Source: Gonapodya sp. JEL0774
Taxonomy: Eukaryota
Direction of reading: 5' to 3'
Assembly (NCBI GenBank): GCA_027604505.1
Contig: JADIIX010000063.1
Span: forward strand, 111,508 to 131,507
Length of the DNA stretch: 20,000 nucleotides
Part shown: in pieces, positions 1 to 19,698 of the stretch
How positions within the stretch are numbered: position 1 is the stretch's first letter
Layout: the number at the start of each line of letters is the position of its first letter
Notes under the pieces: model-generated
Told to the model about the DNA's origin: nothing
Database searches by the model: none
The model's input: only the letters and a program-made list of their open reading frames with translations
Position numbers and translations under genes: made by a program

Positions 1-6
1 ACTGAC

Positions 7-1347
7 CTGGTTTTTGGTTCCCATGATGAATGTTCTGAAGTCTTTGTACCCTCCTGGCTCACTCCTCCCCCACATTGTGTCCATCGTAAAGTTGATCTTC
101 CTCGCAGCTTCCACAACACCTTCGAGCCCAGCATTGAAGGCGGTACGGTCAGCCCGAGCGAGACCATCCAACGCGGCTGCAGTTGCGGTGACCAAGGATC
201 CAGAGTGACGGACCATGGCAACGTGCACGAGGATGAAGCCGGATTCCTGGTCGAGGAGGAGTCATTTCGGTTGGAAGGGTGTGATAAACAGAATTGGACG
301 TGCCAGCAGCGCGCCACGCACGGACTCTGATCCCGCAAAGCTTCTGATAACACGAATGTTCCTATAATCGGGCGGCGCTTCCTTGTTGATTCTTTCGTAG
401 TTGTACAACGCGTAGGATTGGGCGTACTCCATGAAGGGCTTGGAGTAGAGACTTTTTGAATACGTAGCGCAATATAAGCAAAATGCAGAATAGTCCAGTG
501 ATAAAACGAAAGGTGTGGGACAAAAATTAATATAGAACTGATGGCGATACAAACTTACCGGTCGCTGAGCGTGGCCAGCGGCACCGCGATCTGCTTTGGC
601 AGGACAGGACGACCAAGACCATAGGAGTCACCAGTTCTGGTGAGTGGTGAGCCAATTGTCAGATACGATTCGAAGCGCCAGGGAAGTGGGGTTTCGCACG
701 CACGAACCTTCGGATTTCCAAATCGCAAGGTTCTAAAAGGTATGCGGATGCAAGAAACGTGTAGTCGCGGTACAGCTGATTGACAAAAGGAAAGAGCGAA
801 GTTGGTTCACATGACGAGTTTTCATCACACCCACAGAGTACCAACGCACAACGTACCGCCGCAAGCAACTCAGGATCTGTGACCTCGCTCACGTCCAGCG
901 TGGGAAATTTCTCCAGGACTTCCCCTCCCAACTCTCCTCTGGACAGCAAGCCCCTGCCTCCCTCTGGTAGGTAAACGGGCATCCGACGGAGGAGCGAATC
1001 GAGCGGGTCATACTTGGAAGGAAGAGTGCTGAGCGGGTCCTGTAAGATTTTGGGAGACGGATCAGTTTCATTTGGGTGTAGGATGGGGTGGTGTGTGCGG
1101 CCCGAGGAGACTCAGACGACCCCTTTACCTTTCGCGGGAGAAATCCGTTCTGTCTCCCAACAGTGAAAACCGGCAGGCTCTTTACATCTGCGTAGTCCTC
1201 GGCAAGTTTGAACGTTGGCGGCGCCGGGGTGGTGTCCATGATCGACGGGGGAAGTGCGGACGCGAAAAGGGTCGGTCGCGACCGGGAGACGAAGGACCTA
1301 CTAAAAGACAGGCCCGCCCGCGCAGCATGGGATTTGAGCCTGAGCAT
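7..1347 (-). CDS. IDO: Indoleamine 2,3-dioxygenase family protein, 3'-partial (continues past the left edge of the window)
   Basis: Manual splice model, all GT-AG: exons 1347-1129, 1039-857, 775-708, 636-559, 451-322, 246-7, followed by donor GTCAGT at 6-1. The joined peptide has IDO-family motifs: NGFLPRKDPL, LYRDYTFLASAYLLEPC, LPKQIAVPL, KPFMEYAQSYALYNY, SESESGFILVHVAM, MDTMWGRS..GYKDFRTFIMG. The family was recognised from memory of the motifs. Confidence 0.88.
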
Positions 1348-2234
1348 AGTGCGCTGGGGTGGATTTGTAGCTTCTGAGCGTGGGTTTCTGGTTTGTCTGT
1401 AAATGTGGGGAAACTTACTTTTTCGAAATTGTATCCCAAAGCCCTGAATCCCTTTTTTTGAAGGCGTGATTCAAACTGTTGTTTGCCACTCTACGGTGTC
1501 GGGCAAAAGTCTGGACACGAGAAGCAAACACACTCACCGTGCCTCTAGATGCAACTGATGCATCAAGGAACGGAACTGATGAGGGACGCCGTCTCAGGCT
1601 CCATTCTGACGTGTGTATGGGAGTGAGCAGTTGAACTATTGCCAACTGTGCGGCCGGGACCTCACGAAGAGAGTGGAAAAAGGTGCATCGAGGCTGACTT
1701 GGAGAATCTTTAATAATTATCTACAAATACGAAGAACAGAGTACAATGCCGATAATTGCTTATCAGGAAATACAGCCCCAGAGGAGATATCTACTCAACA
1801 CACTTGTACTTTATTCTCAACCAGTGCTAAGAGGAGAAATTGGAGCATTGTCAAGTTGCCGCGCACGAATACAGCGACTTTTTAGAGTGTTGTGGTGTAT
1901 CGGGATCATCCTGAGGGTCGAGGGATGGGTCGAGCGAATACGCTGCGTCACCATCACCCTCATATACTAACCAGTGCTAGTACCACTAAAAGTCCCAAAC
2001 GTGGGATCTTCCACCAAGAAGTAAATCACCCCAAGCAAATTCGGCACCATCCCCAGGGACAAGAGCGACCACGCAAAGCACAGCCCGGCAAACACATTTA
2101 ATTCTTCAAGGGACTTGCACCCGAATCAGAAATAGCGTCTCTGTGTTCTGAGAAGAATCAATGGTTGTAATACTTTGGGACTGCCTGCCGTGGCCTCTTG
2201 AATTCTCCGACCCAAACACCGCTTCCCGCTCACC

Positions 2235-4453
2235 ATGGAACCCGCCCGCGTCCATCCACCGCCGCCACCTCCACAGTCTGCGCCACCGCCCCCACCACCG
2301 TGTGTTCCAGTCATCGATATCTCAGATCCGATTCAAGTAACACAAATTCTGCCATTCGCTTTGCTCGAGTGCGGAAACTTTCTCATTGTAAATCATGGCG
2401 TGGAAACTGAAACCATTAAACGTTATGCGAATCAACTTTTTGAGCTGCCGGACGAAGTGAAGAGGGCAATGGCAGTCGACGAGAGCAGACACTTCTTCGG
2501 ATATACCGGCATAGGTCAGCTGTTGGTCCTTTGCATACCGAACTCTCCATTCATTTGTTTTTGATAAATTTATGGCTGCTGTTACGATGGCTGATGTTCA
2601 ACGTTGACGAAACACATCGTTTTCGTGCGGATCACAACGATCGAACACCTGTCTCTCACTTGAGTAGGTCACGCCACCACAGAGGGAAAACCCGATTGCA
2701 GAGAAGACTTCGGTGTGTTGTCGATTCACAGCCAGAACGGTACTCTCAGACGAACCCAGATTAAATGACATTCACGTGTCGCTTTGATCTTTCGCGGGCG
2801 TTGGTCCGCTCACAGACTTTGGCAATGACCTCCCATGTAAGTGTTTGACATCGAGTGATGCATGGAAATTGGGTTCATGTGTGCAGGACATTTCGCTTTC
2901 CCACTCTCAGAGTATGGTGCATTGTACAAAGAGGGCGAAACACGTCCTGGCGAAGCTTCACGGATAGACATCATGATGACTTTAGATACGCGCGACCTAC
3001 CTACTCATACCTGCCATTTCACCTCACCTGTCTATCCTCCACAGCCATCTGGCGCCCAAACGACCCGCCCCATCTCCGGTACAGACCAGGCCCGAACCAA
3101 TGGCCGCCCGAACATCTCTTACCAGGATTCAAGGATGCGTCTAAGGCGTACTCGGACCAGATGATGAAGTTGGGGATGAAGTTCATGCGGTGGATTGCCG
3201 ACGTGGTGCAGGGACGACAGATCCGGACGGACGACGGTGTGACTGGCGCTGGCGAGCCCGCGGCCACGACACACGGTGCGACGGAGCAGCACACCGAGCA
3301 CCACGGTCGCCACGGCGAGCTCTCGACCGACCTCGCCATCACGTTGCCTCGCAATCCTCCTCTCGACCCTCTCGACCCGTCCATCTTCGCCCGCTACTTC
3401 GACGGATCCTCCATACGCGGCGGGAGGATAAAGTTCGTGAGGTACCCTCCTGCGGGATCGAAGGACCTCGTGGGGGTTGAGAATGGACAGGGAGGTACGG
3501 TGGGACTTGTTGTGCGTGGTTGTTCTCGAACGACCCTAAACCGAAACAAATCGCACTCCCGTCCTCAGTCGGACCTCACCGAGATTTATGGCTGACCTTC
3601 CTCCTTCACGCGAATGATTTGCCCGGTCTCCAGGTCCAGGCACGGGATGGTGCGTATCGTGTGAAAACAGCATGTCGCCAGAACACAACAATCCAGTCTC
3701 ACCATCCACACACACACACATATACACTCAAAAAAAAACTGACCTACTTACCCAGGCACATGGCTTTCCGTACCTCCCATCCCAAACTCCTTTGCCGTCA
3801 CTGTAGGGCAAGCTCTGGAATCAGTTACCCACGGCATCCTCCTGGCCACCCACCACTGCGCCACCATACCTCCACCCGGTTCTCCGGCGAGGATAACAAT
3901 ACCGTATTTTATGGATATCTCAGGCGATACGACGCTGGGCATGATTAAGGAGGGACTGGAAGTTGGGGAGGGAGGCTTGGAGAAGAGGATGGTAGAGTGG
4001 GCGAGGTGGCGGAGGTGGGAGGAGGAGAGGAGGAAGAGAGCGAAATTGGCTGCAACGGCACGTATGAGAATCCAATGTGGAAATGGTGATGGGGCGTCTG
4101 CATCCTCCTGCCCAGCTGTTACGCCATTGTCAGTCGCTAACCCCACCACGGAAGCACCATCGACACCGTCAAGCACCACCGCCCCCACACAACCACCTGT
4201 TACAACACCACCTGATCTATCTTCGACCTCAGATATAACAACACGCACTATCACACCGGATTCGGCACCTCCATGGCAACCCACTGAGTCCTCCACCCTC
4301 CGTGAGCTCCACTTCCGTGGTATGCTCGCTCGAAGACCCCAAGTTGGCCGCCGCTGGTACCCGGAGATGATGGCGGAGATTGAAGCGCAGGGAAACCCGG
4401 TCAGCGGAGCTGGTACAAGGAACGAGAAAGGAGAGACAAATTCGGACATGTGA
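2235..4453 (+). CDS. 2-oxoglutarate/Fe(II)-dependent oxygenase, isopenicillin N synthase-like (DIOX_N + 2OG-FeII_Oxy), about 524 aa
   Basis: Exons 2235-2514, 2668-2712, 2816-2836, 3045-3494, 3569-3649, 3756-4453 total 1575 nt, in frame, all GT-AG. Motifs: VPVIDIS, GNFLIVNHGV, LFELPDEVK, GPNQWP, KFVRYPP, HxD (GPHRD), GLQVQ..GTWLSVPPIPNSFAVTVG, distal His (ATHH) and R-x-T at the 2OG-binding position. Confidence 0.85.
3707..3738 (+). repeat. Short (CA)n microsatellite followed by a poly-A tract in intron 5 of the 2OG oxygenase
   Basis: The sequence cacacacacacaca...aaaaaaaaa is read directly. Confidence 0.7.
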
Positions 4454-5225: not shown

Positions 5226-5360
5226 GAATGAGGATGAGAAAGTTTGTTAAGCTGGTATCCACGTTGCTGCGGTCAAAAAGCCCGCCATGATCGTCACTAT
5301 CGGTTCCGATTCGCGTTATCACTTTCTGGGGTATACATCAAAATTGAAATGGCCGAATTC

Positions 5361-8300
5361 CTAGAACCATTCGACACTCAAATCAAGCTCAAGTAGATCA
5401 TCCAAAACACGGTCAACGCTGCTGCCCACACTCTTGGACACTTCTCGTTGCCGCCGTATGCTTAAGTTATTGAACATTTCGATCACATTTCCATCTAAAA
5501 TGTTGGCCCCTCGCGTGACGGTGGATGGGGAACTTAGAAAGGACGCGGACGTGGAACGGAGACGCCTGAACAACGTGATTCAAAGCAAGGTGGAGCCGTG
5601 AACTGGTGATCCACAGAAATAAGAAACCCACCTGAAACCTCTCGGATTCAATCCAGCAATCTGCTGTGCTCCGGCAACTAGACGGTTTGCTACTGCAGTC
5701 AATCGGCGGTACATTTTTTCGGGAATGGGAACCATGGCACACAGGCCACCATCCGCAGTCGCTGAATCCAATACAGGTGTGACATAAATCATCGAATCAC
5801 GACATTTTCTTCGAATTAAACCATTCGAAGTCAAGAAATCTCACTCATTATTACCGCTTGCTGCCTGCTCGCCATTGCCGGCCCGCCCTTTCTCCTGGGT
5901 AGGGTCATTTTGCGCACTCTGACCATTTGGAGAACCTGACTGCCGACGTGAAACTCGCCCCGACGGAGAAGCTTGGTGCCACCAATGGACCGCACATCTG
6001 CGAAAAAGCCCGTCACAGAAGAGCATAAGTCACAACAGAATGCCAACAGCATAGAGGCTCAAGGACACCAGATTCCAAACGCAAAATGTTGTACTTACCC
6101 TCGGGAGAGAACGCAAACATGAGCAAATTCCCCTCCGAATCTGCGGTGAGCAAAGATAATTGGTTGTGGTCGATGAGGAAGTCGGTGGCACAAACTTCCA
6201 ATTGGCTGAAGTCGCGGCCCAAGGAGCCAAGCTTGGCTGGCTCCTCCTGAAAAAATAAAACAGGTTCCAGGAACAGTTAACTTCATGAGGGTCAAACGAC
6301 CATTGTCACACGTCCCAATTCACTAACTTGGAACCCCATGAACCACAAACTCTTCATTATGTCTCCTGCGACAATGACATTCTTTATGGCGCTTACCGAC
6401 CGCACATAAATATTCACGTCCAAGAACGCTACACCATCCAACGATTCTCCGTCTTCAAATGAATGTACGATAACCTACACAGGAACTCTGCTGATCATAT
6501 GGACTTCTCCGAATTATCACTCGCATTAATATCGACACACCTTGTTGCCAATGGCGGCGAGCAAGTATCCATTCACGCCACACAATTTGGTCACTGGTCC
6601 CGCCGTACCTTTGTCATCCGACTGGTAGAGCAGTTTGAGTTTATGGTTCGTCCGAGGATTGTCTGGTTCTGGCACCACCTCTATCACGTCGAAGATGTAA
6701 ATCTTCGAGGAAGAAGCACACAGAAATGAAAATCGCATTTCAATAAAAACCAAAAACCAAATACCAGTTTTTTTTGTGGTTTTCTATTGGCGATTCGTCA
6801 TCATTTCGTGCTCACCTTGCCTCGCGACGAGAGGTCCTCAGCTCGAACGAAGCCCGTGCCTACAACGATGAACAGTTTCCGCCCGCTCGCAGTTTGTTTA
6901 CTTTCAAGACTGATAGTCTGGGCGTCCAGTATGTGCTCGTACTCTGCAAACTGGTATCTGTGCAAGGTTTGGAGAGTCAGACGTGACACCTCAAGATATT
7001 TGAAAGGCAGGAAACAAACCGGTCTACTGTTTCCCAAGTGAGTGGCGAGATAAGCTCTAGTTGGAATTGCCTATCCTCAGGAAGAAACGCGCCAGGAGCT
7101 GACGACGGTGGAACCGTTCAATGTGGTAAAACACGTTGGCTCATCAAGATAGTAGTCGCACTCACGTCGACCTTCCATGCCAGTGTCAGGTTTGAGAGGA
7201 TCGGCCGTTGGTACTTGCCCATTCACCTGTTCGCCCTCCTCTATAACACCCGCGAGCACTGCTGCAGCATACTGTGCGCGGCTGAGAATAAACGGTACCG
7301 TAGTCGAAGTCGCGAGAACAAACGTTTGCGAGGTAGCGTGGGCCATGACATGGTGGGGTGTGCGTTTGAGTGGAATTTTTCGGATCGGCCAATCTGCGTC
7401 GAGATTGTGGGCACTCGGAAGACGGGCTATGCGGAGGTTGCCCTGCGAGCAACATTATTGCGGTCAGCTAGTCAATTTTTCAGCCGTTCACAATCAACTC
7501 ACATTGGAATTAACGTACACGAACCCGTGCTTGCAAGTCGCTGAGTCAAATTCACTAAAGCCGAGAATTTCTCCATCTACAACCATTGGGTGAACTCGAA
7601 TATTTCTCTTCCCAGAAATCGCAGATGGAATGGAGAGGGGTACAAACTGAGGATCAAGCGCTACGGAATGATCCATGCCGCTCCCAGTGTGATGCGCGAG
7701 GTCGTCTTCCAATTTGTTGCCATTTGCTTTCTTTGAAGATCGAATCTCCAATCCAGCCGCATCAATATCCAACGAGGTAATCGGAATGCTAGTGTTCACC
7801 ATTCCCAGCACAATGGAGGGTCGAGCACCTGCCACGAAAACCCCTTCATATATTGCGCTGTCGTCCCAGCCGACCAAGCTATTGAATTTTCGAAGCTTCC
7901 GTCGCCGGATATCTTTTGGGTCTTGGATGTTCAGATCATGCGGGGAGGTTTGCAGTTTGTCAAGATCTACAAAGAAGCGTAGTTCTCTGCCATTGTGATC
8001 GTGGTGATGGCGGACAAACCGAATAGCCAATCGGTTCTGAGCTTTGTCAGGTATGGTCTCATCGTAGGAAGAGGATCCCGTTGCACGTGCAGATAATATG
8101 TTAGTGCTACTTGCTCCTGGAGTCATGAGAGTACTTGGGAACGCCGAAGGTGCTGGAATATCGCCTGCCGCCTCCAGGTGGTAGAATCCTCGGTAAATTG
8201 CTATATCTCCACCCGCCGCTCGTGCCTTGAACGCATGCACTTAATTTATTAAGCAAGCGCAAACTACGAACGATCCTCACCAACAAATAGAGATCCTTCT

Positions 8301-11300
8301 CGGTGCCTTCTCGTCCAATGTGACACAATAGCACTTCGGAGATTGGTGCTCCTCCAGCTGCAGCAGTGTTTGAACCGAGTTGCGGTGCATCGGTGATCAC
8401 TGTTGGAAGCAAGTCGAAATATGGCACCAGATAGCACGATTCCATATCTGGAAGCCTGCAGATCTGAGAGTGCATCATTCCAAAGTGTCCTTGTTTCGAC
8501 AATTGTTGTCATTGTTAATATCGCAGGATGAGTACGCACCTCCAATGTTCCATTCTCATGCAAGATCGTCGCCCAGAAGTTTGCATCACCAGCAGGACTC
8601 ACACCCATACGGCTCACATTCTCCATAGTGATCTCTGCGTGTACTGAGACGGAACCCTCTGCTGCACGTCCCTTTCCCTTAAGGCTCAACGGATCATCTT
8701 GGCCGCTGTGTTCTCCTGTCATTCGTCTTACGTCATCAAGAAAATCCTCTTTTCCCATTCCATACAAGTTCGAGTCGCTGACCTCGCGGGTCGCTATGCC
8801 ATTTACACGAGCACCCGCCTCGTCACCACCATACAAAAGATCCCTGTCCAATTCATCCAAATACCCATCTGCCCCAGCGAGCTCTGATATTGGTGCCGAA
8901 GACAAAGTTCTGCCGTCGTATGGCTTTTGACGGGATCGTGGAGGCTGCTGGAGTCGCGTCATGTCATCAAACCCTCCTCCCTCGCTTAACCGTGAAATAG
9001 CTGTGAATCGTTTCTCCGCTTCACGGAGTGTTGGCAATAGCCGCCCTTTTGTGGGATCCATGTAAATAGAAAAGGCTTTGATCGAACTGAATTCTGCCTG
9101 AAAGGTTCACCAGAGAATCTCAAACAAAAGTCCATGGACGAGTCACAACAAACAATACCTTCAGCTCTTTTACAATGTTCAACTTCCCAGCATGCACTAT
9201 TTGCTCCCCAGGCTCTGCTGCATCCCCGCTGTGATCATCCTCTGCCACCATTATCAAGCTGTTGCCATCTACACTCATCACCCAAACGTAGGGATCAACA
9301 ATATCTGCAGAAACGATTATTTGATCGGCAAAAAGGTCCGAGATTTTCAGCTCCTGCACCAAACGACCAGTTATGTCCAAGGCAGTCACGCTACCCTGCG
9401 TGATCTGAACAATTAGTGATCCGTTCAAGACGGATCCCGCCGCTACTGTCCTCACAGACCGATGGAAACCCAGAGCTTTCGCTTCTAGCAGATCTCCCCC
9501 AGAAGTGTCCAAAACGGTTGTTCCGTTGTTGCGTGAAATAAAGAGGAACCCCTTTTGCGGTTGTAGTCGACTTTCATCTTGCTCATATTCATCACTGCTC
9601 ACAACCACTTTCCACACATCTTCCAGCTTTGTTTCCTCTTCATCCACAATCGCACCATCATCGGATTCATCACCAGTGACCGCAGACTCTGGTTCTTTGG
9701 ATGCCCTGAAATCCGCCGATTGGAAACTGGCAATGACGACTGGCGCTATGTTCTTCCGCAGAATCGTCAGGGTACCGGAAAGATCGCCACCAGTGCCACA
9801 CATAAGCTCAAGATCCTGTCGCGGAAAAGTGGGTTCATATATGGGGGGTGCTGGATCATCGATGGGTTCTGGAAATGACGAGGGCCACCACGTTGGAATA
9901 GAAACAACACAGTCACGAAGAGGTCCAATGGAGGAAAGCTGATCTGTCGCACAAAAGCGAAGCTTTCGACGGATGGTTTGAAGACGATTCTCCGTTTTCG
10001 CCGTCGCCATTGTGCCTCTTGTGCCATTAGTCTCGTCGGTCGAATGCCCGTAAAGATCTTGTCATTGCAATCATGATCAGATCGAGCGATCGAGCGACCG
10101 AAATGGGTCGGTACAGCTCACCGGAGTCCATGTCGTCTTCGAACTTCATCCGCTTCCCGTTCACGGATCCGTCTCCTTCTTCAAATGCGTCGTCTGCTCT
10201 TCGCTTGGTCCCGTGAAGGCTGCCGTTGACTAAATCGTTCTCGACTTCCTCTACTTCTTCTTCATTTAATTCAACCTGTGCTTCTTCAAACTTGAATACA
10301 ACGTCATCACCCAAACGGTTTGAAAGGAATACAAAGCCTTCCCGAGCACCTGGAACGACATCGCCCACCCTTGCGACACAGCCTGGAACGCCAACAAGTT
10401 TTACACCACACCTTTCAACTTCGATTCTTCGCAATCCGCCCTTTTTCCGTCCCCAGCCACGACCTGAATCTTCCCCACCGACCAAGTCGACCCGCACAAA
10501 CTCCCCCTTCTTGGTCACCAAAACAACCGTATCCGGATCCACGTCCCACACAACCGCCCCCGACAGATCTACTCCAACATCTTCTCCGCCTTTGCAACAC
10601 TGTCCATGGTAAAGAGGGTTCGGTCGGTCATCCGGAATCGATCCGGGGCCGTAGGATAAAGGCGCGGCTTTTTTGCCAGGACCACCTGCCATCGCAGCAT
10701 TAGCAAGGTTCGTTATCCGCTCCTCCGATCCCCAAAAAAAGTTGACAGGGGCCGCGATTCCTGGAACCGTTGTTTGATCGACGTAGACCACTCCGTTTGG
10801 ATGGAGAACGAGGACTCCACCGAGGGGTTGAGGAAGCGGGTGAAGGCGAAAAGAGCCCGTGGGCAAACGATCATGAGAGAAAAGAACAGGGTATGGTCGG
10901 TGATTGGGGTTGAGTGATGCATTAGGGTTTGGCGGCGTGAGTGGCAAAGTAACAGCCATCAGATGTACAGTATCGCGACGGGCAGGATACCGACTACGCA
11001 GGTTTGTTTTTCAGAGCGAAGTCAAATACATTAAATCGACACGCGTGGGGACACGGAACTGCATATAAGCTCACCCAGTCCATGTTCTGTGTGATTCGTA
11101 TAATATGACAATGGTTGGAGTGTTGTATCCGTGAAGAAAAGCCACGTCGATAATGTTAACCATAGCAGGATCGATAGAGGAGAATGGAATCACAAAAGAA
11201 GGGTGAAAAGGTGCCCTGAAGCGAATGAATGTGTGTTGCGTTCGAAGCTACTTAGTCCTCCGAATACAGTCAACGATGCAGACGAAGAGCGAGCGCAGCT

Positions 11301-12530
11301 GAGCTTACATTTCGTCGTCTTCATCCTCACCACTAGCAATCTTAGGTTTTCGGGCACTTCCACGTGCCCCGTACAGCTCGTCATCATCCACTGCCATACG
11401 GATTTCGTCCGCTTGCCTAACAGGTACGATCGCCATCCTTCCACCATACACCCTGAAAACCACACATCTATTCCGAGGGTCCACGCGTATCTCAGGGTGA
11501 AGATGGGTGGGGTTAAGGTGCTCGGAACGGTACTCCTCCCTCTCGTAAAAGTGTAAAGAGAGTGTAGAAAGGGAATGGGTCGGAGGGTGCCAAGAAACGA
11601 GGGACATCTATAACATCAGTTAAAGAGGAGGAGAATCGATCAGCCTGCGTCCAAAACTTGAGCTAAACATTGGAAGTCGAAGCTGTTCTTCACAGAGTCA
11701 AACTCTGCCGTACGTCACGAAACGGAGCCACTCCTTCAATTGCGTCGGAATTTCTCCTACTATCAACACCGAGGTTCTCCGATTGAGCAGAGATTGACGT
11801 CACTGGCTCGCACCTTTGCGTCTGCAAACCCCAGGAGCAAACTATCCATACCAGCGGCACCGACACCAACGGCAGTACGAACGACGCCCATAGATTCAAT
11901 CACACCAGCTAGCTTGCACGAGTGAATGTGATGGAGTCGAGCAACCTTTCGGCGTTGGGAGGCGAGCGCAGAGGAAACCGATGGTCGAAACTGAAAAAGG
12001 AGCGGATGTACAAGGCAAGTTGCGATAGCAACATCAGCGGTCAGAGATGGCGCGAAAACTATATCCATGGTTTGTATAAATTCATTACCGAGTACCATAG
12101 TTTCTGAGCATATGGCTCAAATCGAGTCGGCATTCTCACACTTTTTGCTGCTTGCGGCTGCCAACAATGTCTCACCAATAGGTTCCTCCAATCAGCATAT
12201 CCAGTTGTGCGCTCGACAATCCCGGTAACGAAATTTCCCGAAGACACAGTCTCTTCGTCCCTCTTCCCTTCAACTCACTTGTTGGTCCTCCAAATCCCCA
12301 AACGCCATCCCCGCCTCCATTTCAATTGCAGCTGCATCATCACTGGTACCTCCAGGACCCCCAGTAGCTCCAAAGTTCGGGATAGTCTCCTCTTCTTGAC
12401 GAACTTCGAAGATTTGGAGAGTGTTTCCTCTAGCAACTGCGAGATTCCTGGCGTCGGGGCTCACAAGAACACCAGAGACACAACATGACGCCACGGAAGG
12501 GGGCAAGAGATCGCGGTACAGGTGGAACAT
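5361..12530 (-). CDS. CFT1: Cleavage and polyadenylation specificity factor subunit 1 (CPSF160/Cft1), multi-exon
   Basis: ATG at 12530 (MFHLYRDLLPPSV..NLAVARGNTLQIFEV). Internal exons encode DSLLLGFADAK/MSLVSW..LSTLSLHFYE, IRVDP..RC, PLGGVLV..NGVVYVDQ, DQLSSIGPL, GVFVAGARPS, HGFVYVN, WPIRKIPL, FIVVGTG..EDLSSRGKIYIFDVIEVVPEP, KGTAGPVTKLCGVNGYL and RGEFHVG. The C-terminus reads GLNPRGFR...ILDG..MF..LS...EVSK.VG.....LDDL, with TAG at 5363-5361. Not all internal exon boundaries were resolved. Confidence 0.93.
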
Positions 12531-12748
12531 GCTGGGTACCAAACCCAGGTATCGGATTACCCTTCTGCTGTTGACCGCAGCATATGAGTTCTCGTCTTAT
12601 CGCAAACATTAATAACTCCTTGATAGTTTCGGGACAACCGAAGAATACTGCATTCATGCATATAGTTGTACTGTTTTTGATTGCGATTGCAGCTATCTTG
12701 GTACAACTAATGGTAGCGTTCTTGCACAACGGTGGTATGTCTCACAAC

Positions 12749-15809: not shown

Positions 15810-16693
15810 CTAGAAGTCCAAATCCGGCTTCGCCTTCTCCTTTGCAATTGCGCGGTCCTGTGGAGCAAACACAATTCGGTCACATTTCTCTCGAAACGTC
15901 CCAAGAAAAAAACCTACCCTTTTCCACGTGGCAATCATCTCAGGCATTTTTTGGAGGAGTTCCTGCTGGCGTTTTTGTCTTGAAAGGAGAAGTTGTGAGC
16001 AACAAGAATAAAATGCACGATGTCCACCAACACCCGAATTTGCCGTATCCAAATCAGCATTCATTTCCGTTTCGTACGTTGATACAGGAGAGAGCAACAG
16101 GGAATGGCAGGCGCTGTTCCCAGAAGTACGTACCTCTCGTACTTCTTCATCTCATTTTTTCCTTCTGGCAACTTCGCAAACACCTTCACCTCCCGCACCT
16201 CCTTTTCCGGCAGTCCCACATCTTTTACAGGATCCAGCCCACACAACAATGCGACCTTCCTGATCCGCGCCTGGTTCCTCAACGAGACGCGAGGTTTCCA
16301 CCACACGCCATTGACTAGTGTTGGCTTAAAATCGGAAGCAGGGTGACGGTACGAAGCTTGTTGGAAGACCCAGTCTGTAGGGAAGCGACGCGGGAGTTTG
16401 ATGCCACGAAGTTGAGGCGCAGAACGGGAGGTGTCCCTCAACCTCGAAGGATAGCCACCGGGCTTCGCGGAAGACGATGAGGATGATTTCCCTTCAGTCG
16501 CGGTGGGTTTGAATTTCACACGGGAGGATCGACCGGTCGACAGCGCGGCAATGTGCAATCGATGGGGAAGTAGTGATGTTCCAGAAAGGGGGATCATGGC
16601 GCATGATACGGAAAGGGACGGGAGCGATGGCGAGGGTGCACGTGAATGAGACGCGGTGTGGAGATGGAGCAAGCAGCTTCGAAGGATTGTCAT
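15810..16693 (-). CDS. MRPL25: Mitochondrial large-subunit ribosomal protein mL59 (yeast Mrpl25-like), about 222 aa
   Basis: Exons 16693-16134, 15978-15918, 15857-15810 total 669 nt. Motifs: FKPTLVNGVWWKPRVSLRNQARIRKVA, GLP, KLPEGKNE, KMPEMIATWK and C-terminal KAKPDLDF. The N-terminus is Ser/Arg/Leu-rich and presequence-like. The start could instead be the downstream ATG (MIPL). Confidence 0.8.
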
Positions 16694-16845
16694 TGTTGTA
16701 CAATAATTGTCGGATTGCAGTGCATTGAGAGTTAGACAATCAATCAAACCTACAAAAGCAAATTCGGACCTTGCCCAAAATCAAAAGTATATCACAGCTC
16801 AGTAGCATCAATAGTCATAGGCGCTACCACTCTTCCGACTCCAAT

Positions 16846-16955
16846 ATCTAATCTCTTGAGTCTCAGGCATCTCCTATACAGTTGCGGACTGCTTTGACTC
16901 TCACCCTTCAAGGGTTAGTAGGTTTAGAGGTACCATCATAAAAGTAGAGATTGAT
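16846..16955 (-). promoter_or_regulatory. Candidate eukaryotic SECIS element in the 3' UTR of the SelU/PRXL2A-like gene
   Basis: On the minus strand, helix I is ATC-AATCTCT (16955-16946) paired with AGAGATT-A-GAT (16856-16846). The core is A-UGAU (16939-16935) opposite UGAG (16865-16862). Helix II is GGUACCUCU / GGAGAUGCC (8 of 9 paired, including G-U), followed by unpaired AAA at 16925-16923. The element starts about 59 nt after the TAG stop. Confidence 0.75.
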
Positions 16956-17013
16956 GTCAGAAGAACACAGCGCTCAGACACAGTTATAGCCGGGACATGG
17001 ACAGGCGTGGTTG

Positions 17014-18124
17014 CTACCCTGGGACCGTGCCCACTTCGGCAGCGGCTTCTGCGACAGCAGTGAGAACGGCAGAGATGGGGGCATGATCGCCAAAGGTCTG
17101 TAGATATGACGTGAATGGGGGATATGTTAGTTGAGTGGATTGTTTGATTCGGGGGTAACTTACCTTCTCCCCGTAAAAGCTTTGGGACGTGACAAGAAAG
17201 TGGAGTTGAACAAGACCATCGACATCGCCGGATCAAACATCCAGTAATTAAGTTACAAGGGGCTGACAGTCACTCCACAAACTAAAACTTACTAATGAAC
17301 GCCCTTTGTTGAGATCACAGCCAGCCCGCCGAGCAACCTGCCTTCACCCGCCAAATTACCAGTCACGCCCTTCGCGTTCGCCCGATTGAGGTTCGCCCGA
17401 GCATCGCTGCTGAAGAGGCTGAAGATCGAAGCCCAATTTTGTTTGCCCCCTTGTACGACCTCGTAAAACTTCTTCTCTTCATCGAGCTGAAGGGTGAGGT
17501 GGAAATTTCGTGTGAGGACTGAGTCTGGACGTCGGCGGTATACACGACTGACTATGCTTGGGGAGCAGATCTTACGTAAAGTGGTTTCTTCCAGTAGTTT
17601 TCTGCGAAATCACGCGCCCCGAATTCCTAATTGATAGGTGAGATTCGTACGGGGTGAACCAAATAGGATTATTGAGCCCGGTACGGACGATGAACTCACT
17701 TGATGCACAACCGCGTACATATCAGCATACTTTTCTATAACGGATGACTGGGAGGCCAAATCAAGGGCCTCTACATAAGAGCAGCAACGTGAGATTGAAT
17801 AAACCAGGAACCATCCACCACTACGATTAGTGCCACCATTACACTGCAGGTACCCACCCTCTCTGCACAACAGTCATCCAGGTCTCCGCACCACGACGAT
17901 AAGAGCAGGCCGTTTAGACCAGAGCGTAGCGGCGTCCAGAGTAGGCTTCCCGGCTGCCAGAATGTCCTGATCGAGGATGAACAGAAGAGGTGAGGAGTGT
18001 GATTTGAAGTCGGCAACACATACCGAACTACGTAGGATGATGGGGCCACAAAAACACCAGTTCACTGTTGCTGGTAAGACAAACGCACCCTGAGGACAAT
18101 CTGTGGAACAGTCGTGGTCGCCAT
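17014..18124 (-). CDS. SELENOU: Peroxiredoxin-like 2A / selenoprotein U family (AhpC-TSA_2, thioredoxin-like fold) selenoprotein with a UxxC motif, 186 aa, Sec43
   Basis: Exons 18124-18089, 17966-17858, 17770-17700, 17626-17576, 17486-17293, 17179-17164, 17097-17014 total 561 nt, all GT-AG. Translation: MATTTVPQIVLRDILAAGKPTLDAATLWSKRPALIVVVRRPG[TGA]LLCREEALDLASQSSVIEKYADMYAVVHQEFGARDFAENYWKKPLYLDEEKKFYEVVQGGKQNWASIFSLFSSDARANLNRANAKGVTGNLAGEGRLLGGLAVISTKGVHYFYGEKTFGDHAPISAVLTAVAEAAAEVGTVPG*. It matches the PRXL2A/FAM213A motifs RRPGCxxCREEA, AVV, LDE.KKFY, GNL.GEG..LGG..VI and EK.FGD. Confidence 0.9.
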
Positions 18125-18273
18125 TTCGAATAATTTGCAACAATCGTCGTGTTTGGCGGAGAGCTGGGAGGCACCCAACACAAAGAATGTCAACATCCAA
18201 ATTGCGATTCAAAACAACATCCCGAAACGAAGACCATCAAGACTTGTTGATCAAATCAAGATACATCATTGAA

Positions 18274-19698
18274 ATGCCCTCGGCGGTGCCCAGATCCGTC
18301 GCTTTCCTAGGTCCTCTGGGGACATATACTCACCAGGTGCTTGACAGTCCTATTTGAAAGGCGATTCTGCCCAGCATACCAGCAGTTCTACCACTGAACT
18401 GATGTTTTTCAAGGTAGCGAAAGGAAACTTTGGAGAGGAAGCTTCTTATGTTGCCCAGAAGACAATATCAGGTACTCGTCTCGACCTTGCGTTCCGAGTC
18501 TCGCCCATCATTCATTCCGGATTCCACCATCTTCGACCGTAAACGGGTATCTTTCTAATAAGATATTTATGGTGCCGTTGAAAGACGCGAGACAGATTTC
18601 GGGGTTGTACCTTTCGAGAACTCCACTCAAGGTTCTGTCAACCAGAGCTTGGACCGTCTCCCCTCCGCCAACGTTGAAATAGTAGCAGAAGCCTACTTAC
18701 CAGTGCGTAGAATCCTGTCTCGTGCGTTCGGGCGTCATGAGTGTAACTGGGAAGGCCGGAAGTCGGATTTCGTTATTGAGATAACACTCCACTCCCCACA
18801 CCTGGTGCGGCTTTGATGTGGTTCATATGTTTAAGTTGCTTTCTCAGATGACGTTTTCTCGGCTATGGAATGTTTTAGACAGTCATCCTTGACTGTTCAG
18901 TTGCTGCACAGTTTGTCTCGGAGAGGACGTGGAGGCTCAGTGATTCAATGCAACCTGGCCCCTCTTTCCGCATCATTCCCCTATTTTCCTTCAGGTTCAC
19001 CACTGTCTCCTTTCTAAACCCTCCACCAAACCCCGCCGTGTCTTCTCCCACCCGGAAGCCTTTGCCCAATGCTCAAAGTGGCTAGAACGGAATTTACCAG
19101 GTGTTGACCGGGTACCAGTATCCTCGACAGCGCATGCTGCAGAGCTTGCAGGCAGAGAAGTGGACTCGGCCGCTATCGCGTCGGCGATGTGCGCCACGCT
19201 GTACCATTTGGAGTTGGTACACGAGAATATCGAGGACTTAAGCAGTGAGAAATTTTCTTTGAGTGCCAACGCGAGTGTACCGATCGAGTGGAAGTACCTG
19301 GTCTAATACACCTTTTGGAATCTCATTACATCTCACAAATGTTCTGTCAAGACAACACCACGCGCTTCTTCATCATCACTGCGTACCCGTCCCACGCTCA
19401 CACCACATTCTCTCCTTCCTCTGTGGTCACGTCACCACTCAAAACCGTCATTCTGCTTTCCGTGCCTCCCACGCCAAATGCCCTAACAACAATCCTGCTC
19501 GCGCTCACGAAACACCAAGTGTCCATATCTATGATGTACTCTCGGCCTACTGGTGTGCGACAATGGAGCTATTGGTACTATCTGGACGTGGATGGTGATC
19601 CGAGCCAGGATGGACAGTTGAAAGATGCAGTTGAAGAAATGAGATCAGCGTGTGAAACTTTGAGGGTCGTAGGAACATACAGGAGTGTACGAGAATAG
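18274..19698 (+). CDS. PHA2: Prephenate dehydratase with a C-terminal ACT domain, about 285 aa
   Basis: Exons 18274-18336, 18414-18471, 18563-18702, 18995-19244, 19352-19698 total 858 nt. Motifs: VAFLGPLGTYTHQ, GVVPFENSTQGSV, VHHCLL, SHPEAFAQCSKWL, SSTAHAA, AAIAS, NIED..NTTRF, SRP..W.YWYYLD and LRVVGTY. Confidence 0.95.

Follow-up and report, generated by a model that had tools for sequence, protein, structure and literature searches.

Of the three stop codons, UGA is also the selenocysteine (Sec) codon, and an in-frame TGA can be read in either sense. Here we consider one such triplet in the fungus Gonapodya sp. JEL0774, within a 20,000-nt stretch of genomic DNA (hereafter the window), and ask whether it ends translation, stems from a sequence error, is bypassed, or is decoded as Sec.

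An intact seven-exon gene with one in-frame TGA

The gene occupies positions 18124-17014 of the minus strand and comprises seven exons separated by introns of 66-122 nt, all six of which are GT..AG (Table 1). Its 561-nt coding sequence specifies 186 aa and a TAG stop, giving a product of about 20.1 kDa. The sole internal stop is a TGA at codon 43 (17876-17874), in the context RRPG-TGA-LLCREEA; it is placed 16 nt from the end of exon 2, with 143 codons downstream. A profile built from 75 full-length homologues (at least 180 aa, motif present) aligns to residues 4-180 of the 186 with E=1.5e-67 and 214 bits. Since this alignment spans nearly the whole protein, homology far beyond chance backs each of the seven exons together with its phase, and the seven-exon GT-AG model of the first-pass annotation proves exact. 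The same profile alignment, which that annotation had proposed as a check, also bears out its claim that the only interruption falls on the first Cys of the family: the TGA lands on precisely that column. No second lesion was found across the 186 codons and 12 splice sites, and the family motifs downstream of the TGA are intact over all 143 codons, as had been stated. The observation of an intact seven-exon gene with an in-frame TGA is thus confirmed.

Table 1. Coordinates of the SelU-type gene and of the candidate SECIS downstream of it (window positions)
Feature	Position	Strand	Basis
Exon 1 (ATG, 12 codons)	18089..18124	-	Residues 4-12 on family profile
Exon 2, carries RRPG-TGA-LL-C-RE	17858..17966	-	Sequence and profile alignment
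In-frame TGA, codon 43, predicted selenocysteine	17874..17876	-	Sequence; falls on the initial CxxC Cys in the alignment
TGC, Cys46, sole Cys codon in the gene; predicted to be the resolving Cys of UxxC	17865..17867	-	
Exon 3, carries Met66 (17720-17718)	17700..17770	-	Sequence; start of G. prolifera orthologue
Exon 4	17576..17626	-	Sequence and profile
Exon 5, match to Pfam AhpC-TSA_2 (PF13911)	17293..17486	-	Above curated cut-off
Exon 6 (16 nt)	17164..17179	-	Sequence and profile
Exon 7, including TAG stop	17014..17097	-	Sequence and profile
Candidate SECIS (predicted)	16850..16952	-	Pattern scan and inspection by eye
Apical part of candidate, 51 nt, with AAA (16925-16923) followed by a predicted pair of small hairpins	16875..16925	-	
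GT..AG stretch in apical part, 31 nt (speculative intron)	16874..16904	-	

Exon 5 alone scores 29.5 bits against PF13911 (cut-off 27), and the clusters returned by an Atlas search, named PF13911 or PRXL2A, belong to the same family. A metagenome scan with exon 5 returned a single locus, an MreB-like bacterial gene, which was set aside as a chance match. A 4-nt micro-exon within intron 1 (18027-18024, minus strand) was likewise rejected: its inclusion shifts the frame, and the direct join of exons 1 and 2 fits the profile. A good acceptor (TAG) precedes these four nucleotides and a strong donor (GTATGT) follows them; they may mark an unproductive splice form.

The TGA occupies the redox-active position of a SelU-type protein

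The protein carries the RRPG-(U/C)-xx-C-RE motif of SELENOU1/PRXL2A. Among the 75 homologues the TGA column holds Cys in 70 and Trp in 5, and the column of the second motif Cys, Cys46, holds Cys in 74. The five exceptions at the first position are metagenomic proteins that read RRPG-W-xx-C (P0048, P0132, P0147, P0170 and P0180); their Trp probably reflects a TGA codon read with a translation table in which TGA=Trp, hence these are likely to be additional Sec forms. Named fungal homologues possess Cys at the site in 26 of 30 cases (25 by pattern, Allomyces javanicus by eye), and in the other four the site is absent from the annotated protein. These are the Gonapodya prolifera orthologue described below, Gonapodya sp. 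JEL0774 HDU93_006257, Hyaloraphidium curvatum KAI9016090.1 (P0017), whose annotated start lies two residues past the first Cys site, and Synchytrium microbalum SmJEL517_g01535 (P0014), in which that site is skipped in mid-sequence. Judged by these gaps, the H. curvatum and S. microbalum proteins are candidates for more hidden fungal SelU selenoproteins.

A degenerate RRPG-TGA-xx-CRE pattern matched 85 prokaryote and 16 viral-collection loci, and just one of the 102 loci in total is a homologue. This is L100, a contig unrelated to the window, which at 47-790 encodes an intronless SelU1-like protein with TGA at the same site; at the level of DNA sequence it offers confirmation that the SelU family uses TGA at this position. 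Rfam places a SECIS_1 match 57 nt past its stop, at 22.3 bits and so below the gathering score of 35. L100 comes from the viral collection; a single strand bears both the gene and a hairpin resembling a canonical SECIS, beside virus-like sequence, and the contig is probably a chimeric assembly with host mRNA.

Known relatives include the animal SELENOU1/PRXL2A proteins (FAM213A, PAMM, adiporedoxin), which have RRPG-(U/C)-xx-C-REEA in common with the window protein and are 37-40% identical to it over 158-170 aa. The available portions of three studies describe SELENOU1 as Sec-containing in fish and birds and Cys-containing in mammals and frogs (PMC13134290, PMC3316567), and document Sec/Cys switching in the vertebrate gene (PMC13134290, PMC3316567, PMC3473315). 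Vertebrate PRXL2A acts through the CXXC in its active site and has a leader/transmembrane segment, according to the accessible part of PMC4632174. The window protein, in contrast, lacks this N-terminal segment and groups with fungal proteins outside the animal clade. AhpC-like selenoproteins, as represented in Selenoprofiles, share with it the thioredoxin fold, UxxC and superfamily (PMC3753652, supplement seen in part). However, the 19 AhpC profile rows in that part of the supplement feature RHFL-(C/U)-xx-C-K or RGxW-U-PYC, and none has RRPG (PMC3753652). By-eye comparison with these 19 rows detected neither RHFL-(U/C)xxC nor RGxW-U-PYC in the window protein, and on the strength of these rows we class the gene as SelU-type.

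Two trees were computed, one of 54 rows and one of 24, the latter an author-chosen subset of the former. In the 24-row tree the window protein lies within an 18-row clade (support 96), of which 17 rows are fungal and one is unassigned, a placement that fits vertical descent in fungi. When this tree is rooted at its midpoint, the fungal clade falls on the side of three animal PRXL2A rows as opposed to two putative PRXL2B-like rows; the tree has no named PRXL2B or PRXL2C, and the 54-row tree leaves the PRXL2A grouping unresolved. Topology tests neither reject nor show a single clade of all four Gonapodya proteins (p-AU 0.485) or a grouping of the window pair with animal PRXL2A (p-AU 0.083). Scored by its C-terminal half, the G. 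prolifera orthologue reaches 45-59 bits against PRXL2A, compared with 43 bits against human PRXL2B. A label of SelU1/PRXL2A orthologue is supported by the motif, but weakly by similarity scores.

A second Gonapodya species argues against a dead gene or a sequence error

The closest protein is M427DRAFT_54534 (KXS17610.1) of Gonapodya prolifera JEL478, which is 86% identical over exon 5 and 78% over 115 aa, and is the sister of the window protein in both trees (100/95 in the 54-row tree, 89 in the 24-row tree). It is annotated as a 119-aa protein starting at the equivalent of Met66 (17720-17718), the first Met past the TGA site, as expected from the earlier prediction that annotation would truncate such a gene. 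Judged from the protein alone, the model is presumably short because the annotator met an upstream stop, and the truncation suggests that the same interruption exists in a second species. G. prolifera also encodes a full-length CxxC paralogue, M427DRAFT_55113, which shares 47% identity with the window protein and whose orthologue in Gonapodya sp. JEL0774 is HDU93_006257 (P0016). Since this orthologue of a Cys paralogue also lacks the motif, a missing N-terminus or motif is not diagnostic of a TGA. Speculatively, the Cys paralogue would give the genus a selenium-independent backup.

These observations bear on two alternatives. Were the triplet a true stop, the gene would be a nonsense allele or young pseudogene, dispensable by virtue of the Cys paralogue, or would yield a 121-aa product from Met66 devoid of the redox motif. 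One base change suffices to turn TGC into TGA, the full Cys paralogue is kept in G. prolifera, and the database model of the orthologue begins precisely at the Met66 equivalent. A gene so interrupted would not be expected to be free of any further lesion in codons and splice sites, to retain in exons 1 and 2 a match to the family profile, or to be followed by a SECIS-like element in the expected position. Moreover, its identity to the orthologue past the TGA site (78%) exceeds that between the two Gonapodya Cys-paralogue proteins (70%), a rough comparison in which species distances may differ. We consider a true stop very unlikely. The second alternative, an assembly or sequencing error for TGC or TGT in an ordinary CxxC PRXL2 protein, agrees with the prevalence of Cys at the site in named fungal homologues (26/30), but the error must have struck this one codon of 186, and an independently sequenced orthologue is truncated just as a stop here predicts. 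This leaves such an error scarcely credible.

UGA retains its stop function in neighbouring genes

The frame that terminates in the TGA at 4451-4453 has a Pfam match to 2OG-FeII_Oxy, and the one terminating at 12751-12749 has a match to TMEM234. The first-pass annotation had counted a third neighbour that stops at TGA, at 13617-13615; the triplet is present, and that it ends a gene is plausible by eye, so that the claim stands on Pfam-backed frames for two of the three. Seven long neighbouring frames contain 25 TGG codons for Trp, and all three Trp codons of the SelU-type gene are TGG, which upholds the earlier reading of Trp as TGG. The lack of TGA within those seven frames is no test, because they were chosen as stop-free. 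With at least two neighbouring genes terminating in TGA, and TGG as the Trp codon, there is no global code change, in agreement with the earlier view.

This evidence weighs on a further alternative, in which the UGA is bypassed without Sec, either by read-through as Cys or Trp or by use of an alternative intron. The Trp seen in 5 of 75 homologues might be taken to favour it, though TGA codons read with a TGA=Trp table are the likelier explanation, and there are 31 GT..AG pairs, 40-200 nt long, that could enclose the triplet. Read-through sits poorly with neighbouring genes that end in TGA and encode Trp as TGG. All the splice-out options begin 15-43 nt before the TGA and remove the RRPG motif and the Cys46 region, and would therefore destroy the active site. 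A bypass of this kind is, in our estimation, about as improbable as a sequence error.

A candidate SECIS lies downstream of the stop codon

A predicted SECIS, overlooked in the first-pass annotation, starts 74 nt 3' of the TAG stop and ahead of the next gene, within the 40-420 nt past the stop at which fungal SECIS lie (10.1101/314781). On the spliced mRNA, its predicted AUGA/GA kink-turn would be 506 nt downstream of the UGA. Helix I consists of seven contiguous pairs (16952-16946 with 16856-16850) and is separated by a 6 by 5 internal loop from the core, where AUGA (16939-16936) and U 16935 stand opposite UGAG (16865-16862). Helix II (16934-16926 with 16874-16866) forms eight of nine pairs, with one C-A mismatch, and its length is at the short end. 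An AA follows 10-11 nt past the AUGA. The apical part is predicted to fold into hairpins at approximately 16915-16903 and 16892-16878; the upper part reaches -16.9 kcal/mol, and the AA-to-GA distance is 60 nt.

Compared with the canonical definition, as far as the available portions of its sources give it, the core elements are all present: the AUGA...GA quartet, an AA at 10-13 nt, a helix II of 7-15 pairs, and a helix I. The same portions give an apical part of 8-30 nt, an AA-to-GA distance of 15-39 nt and an unbranched top, and the candidate, whose top is predicted to branch, lies outside all three. SECISearch3 discards apical parts above 30 nt (PMC3753652, supplement seen in part), and older searches, according to the accessible part of PMC2375036, required an AA-to-GA distance of 15-39 nt and removed Y-shaped folds. 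The long mini-stem SECIS described in that part for Ostreococcus, Chlamydomonas and the Dictyostelium deiodinase-like gene resemble the candidate in having an extended apical part above helix II, and Dictyostelium SECIS further share the U-U after the core and the AAA (PMC2375036). Those elements, however, were found within the 15-39 nt AA-to-GA range with Y-shapes filtered out, whereas the candidate measures 60 nt and is predicted to branch (PMC2375036, same portion). If the 31-nt GT..AG stretch of the apical part were spliced out, AA-to-GA would fall to 29 nt, the usual size; this is speculative, the stretch being half the length of the shortest intron of the gene, with no branch-point match inside. 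A short, standard-sized reading that uses the same AUGA with a GA at 16900 passes loose patterns and was rejected for weak pairing (-1.0 versus -16.9 kcal/mol).

Chance expectation was estimated with two scorers, both written after the candidate was seen, the first of which missed the L100 control. The first finds the candidate as its only minus-strand match in the window (two sites per 40,000 nt over both strands); when the 414-nt region was shuffled 1000 times it gave a match in 13 cases, and in unrelated loci totalling 564,308 nt it returned 18 sites. Its other match in the window (7038-7095, plus strand) lies on the opposite strand of a coding gene and is taken as chance. At the lenient level that admits the L100 control, the second scorer gives 45 matches in 2000 shuffles; helix II of the candidate is equalled in 4/2000, and in none of the 2000 with helix I too. 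Rfam reports no SECIS in 16500-18500 (none at E<=5), and one unrelated weak match. Four re-implemented SECISearch patterns all detect the L100 control and all miss the long-topped form of the candidate; in the window the two loose patterns detect only the poorly paired short reading, and the strict and default patterns miss it. The region is not more stable than its shuffles (z -1.24), and the SECIS fold is less favourable by 4.4 kcal/mol than the minimum free energy fold under an energy model that does not score kink-turns. In wider context, pair probability is 0.02 for helix I and 0.10 for helix II, the latter rising to 0.90 with the core held unpaired. Support from folding is thus mixed, and on balance we lean, by a small margin, towards the candidate being the working SECIS of the gene.

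Proposed decoding and function

We conclude that this is an intact, spliced fungal SelU (peroxiredoxin-like 2) gene whose UGA, as the first-pass annotation inferred, is probably decoded as Sec, likely under the control of the predicted SECIS; a true stop, a sequence error and read-through or splice-out are improbable even when taken together. In known systems SBP2 binds the kink-turn core of the SECIS and eEFSec delivers Sec-tRNA (10.1101/314781; PMC2761289, in its available part). By analogy, SBP2 would bind the predicted AUGA/GA kink-turn in the 3' untranslated region, and eEFSec would bring Sec-tRNA to UGA codon 43, giving a 186-aa, 20-kDa UxxC protein. The product would be a thioredoxin-fold thiol/selenol oxidoreductase, in which Sec43 would attack a peroxide or disulfide and Cys46 would resolve the intermediate to a selenenyl-sulfide, to be re-reduced by a thioredoxin-type system. 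The protein has no counterpart of the N-terminal leader/transmembrane segment found in vertebrate PRXL2A and is for this reason predicted to be soluble; a soluble peroxide- or disulfide-reducing role is our best guess.

Structural context comes from the predicted model of a Basidiobolus Cys homologue (P0019, pLDDT 87.9), used as a stand-in for the window protein; its best fold match is human prostamide/prostaglandin F synthase, followed by peroxiredoxins. In this model and the alignment, the (U/C)xxC motif opens the first helix of the thioredoxin fold. The only solved relatives by sequence are structures of that same synthase, PRXL2B (PDB 9US9 and its C44S/C47S form 9USA), whose C44 and C47 comprise a CxxC at the same motif position. 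Human PRXL2B differs in that its motif, RRFGCxxCRW, contains Cys only, and the protein is 26-27% identical to the modelled homologue.

Relation to published fungal selenoproteins

Mariotti et al. reported Sec machinery in five early-diverging fungi, with the full set in G. prolifera (10.1101/314781), which substantiates the earlier claim of Sec use in a few early-branching fungi. The Nature Microbiology 2019 version counts nine species (PMC10573291, available part), and another count of Sec-encoding genomes is 11 (PMC9457484, likewise in part). The window gene shares with that study an early-diverging fungal host, a UGA at a known Sec position and a family, SelenoU, that is among its seven fungal selenoprotein families (10.1101/314781). 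However, SelenoU was reported missing in G. prolifera, for which AhpC selenoproteins were listed, with AhpC and SelenoU in one tree (10.1101/314781); our analysis places a SelU-type gene in the genus, with a G. prolifera orthologue. It is possible that the 2019 version includes this gene, or assigns the AhpC and SelenoU labels differently. In the literature searched, which took in few subscription papers, we found neither this gene nor an oversized fungal SECIS described. Sec use in Gonapodya and fungal SelenoU are already published, and the oversized SECIS candidate is the new lead. The gene adds one fungal species and, relative to 10.1101/314781, one family to the Gonapodya selenoproteome, and it illustrates how annotation of such genes loses the active site.

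The candidate also bears on a question left open in 10.1101/314781, namely what fungal SECIS look like, as the 16 fungal selenoprotein genes of that study include just 5 with a SECIS identified, leaving 11 without. It predicts that dropping the 30-nt apical limit recovers missing fungal SECIS, and a native fungal SECIS would be relevant to selenoprotein production in yeast. The same study states that Sec-less fungi have no Cys orthologues, the selenoprotein genes having been lost outright and not converted from Sec to Cys (10.1101/314781). In contrast, we find many fungal CxxC homologues, which together with the Sec/Cys paralogue pair would question the statement of outright loss if those species lack Sec machinery. 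As a tentative proposal, which we hold to be possible yet less probable than its converse, Gonapodya-type fungi may recode UGA by way of SECIS with branched tops of about 50 nt that are invisible to SECISearch3; this would explain some of the 11 SECIS-less genes of 16, and SelU would be an unreported Sec member of a Sec/Cys-switching family, beside its Cys paralogue.

Genomic neighbourhood

The window is fungal-looking, intron-rich DNA of even GC, with no tRNA gene in its 20,000 nt. On one side of the SelU-type gene is a prephenate dehydratase gene in divergent orientation, and on the other an mL59-like mitoribosomal gene. The start of the SelU-type gene (18124) and the ATG of the prephenate dehydratase gene (18274, PF00800, plus strand) are arranged head to head 150 bp apart, and a shared promoter is possible. 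Elsewhere, an indoleamine 2,3-dioxygenase-like gene leaves the window at 1-1300 (minus strand), with PF01231 below cut-off on the piece tested. The 2OG-Fe(II) oxygenase gene at 2126-4453 (plus strand; DIOX_N and 2OG-FeII_Oxy) features long insertions of low complexity, and its C-terminal tail is likewise long. A large gene with multiple exons spans approximately 5300-12600 on the minus strand; it is of the RSE1/DDB1/CPSF1 kind (PF23726) and may correspond to CPSF160/Cft1, which it resembles.
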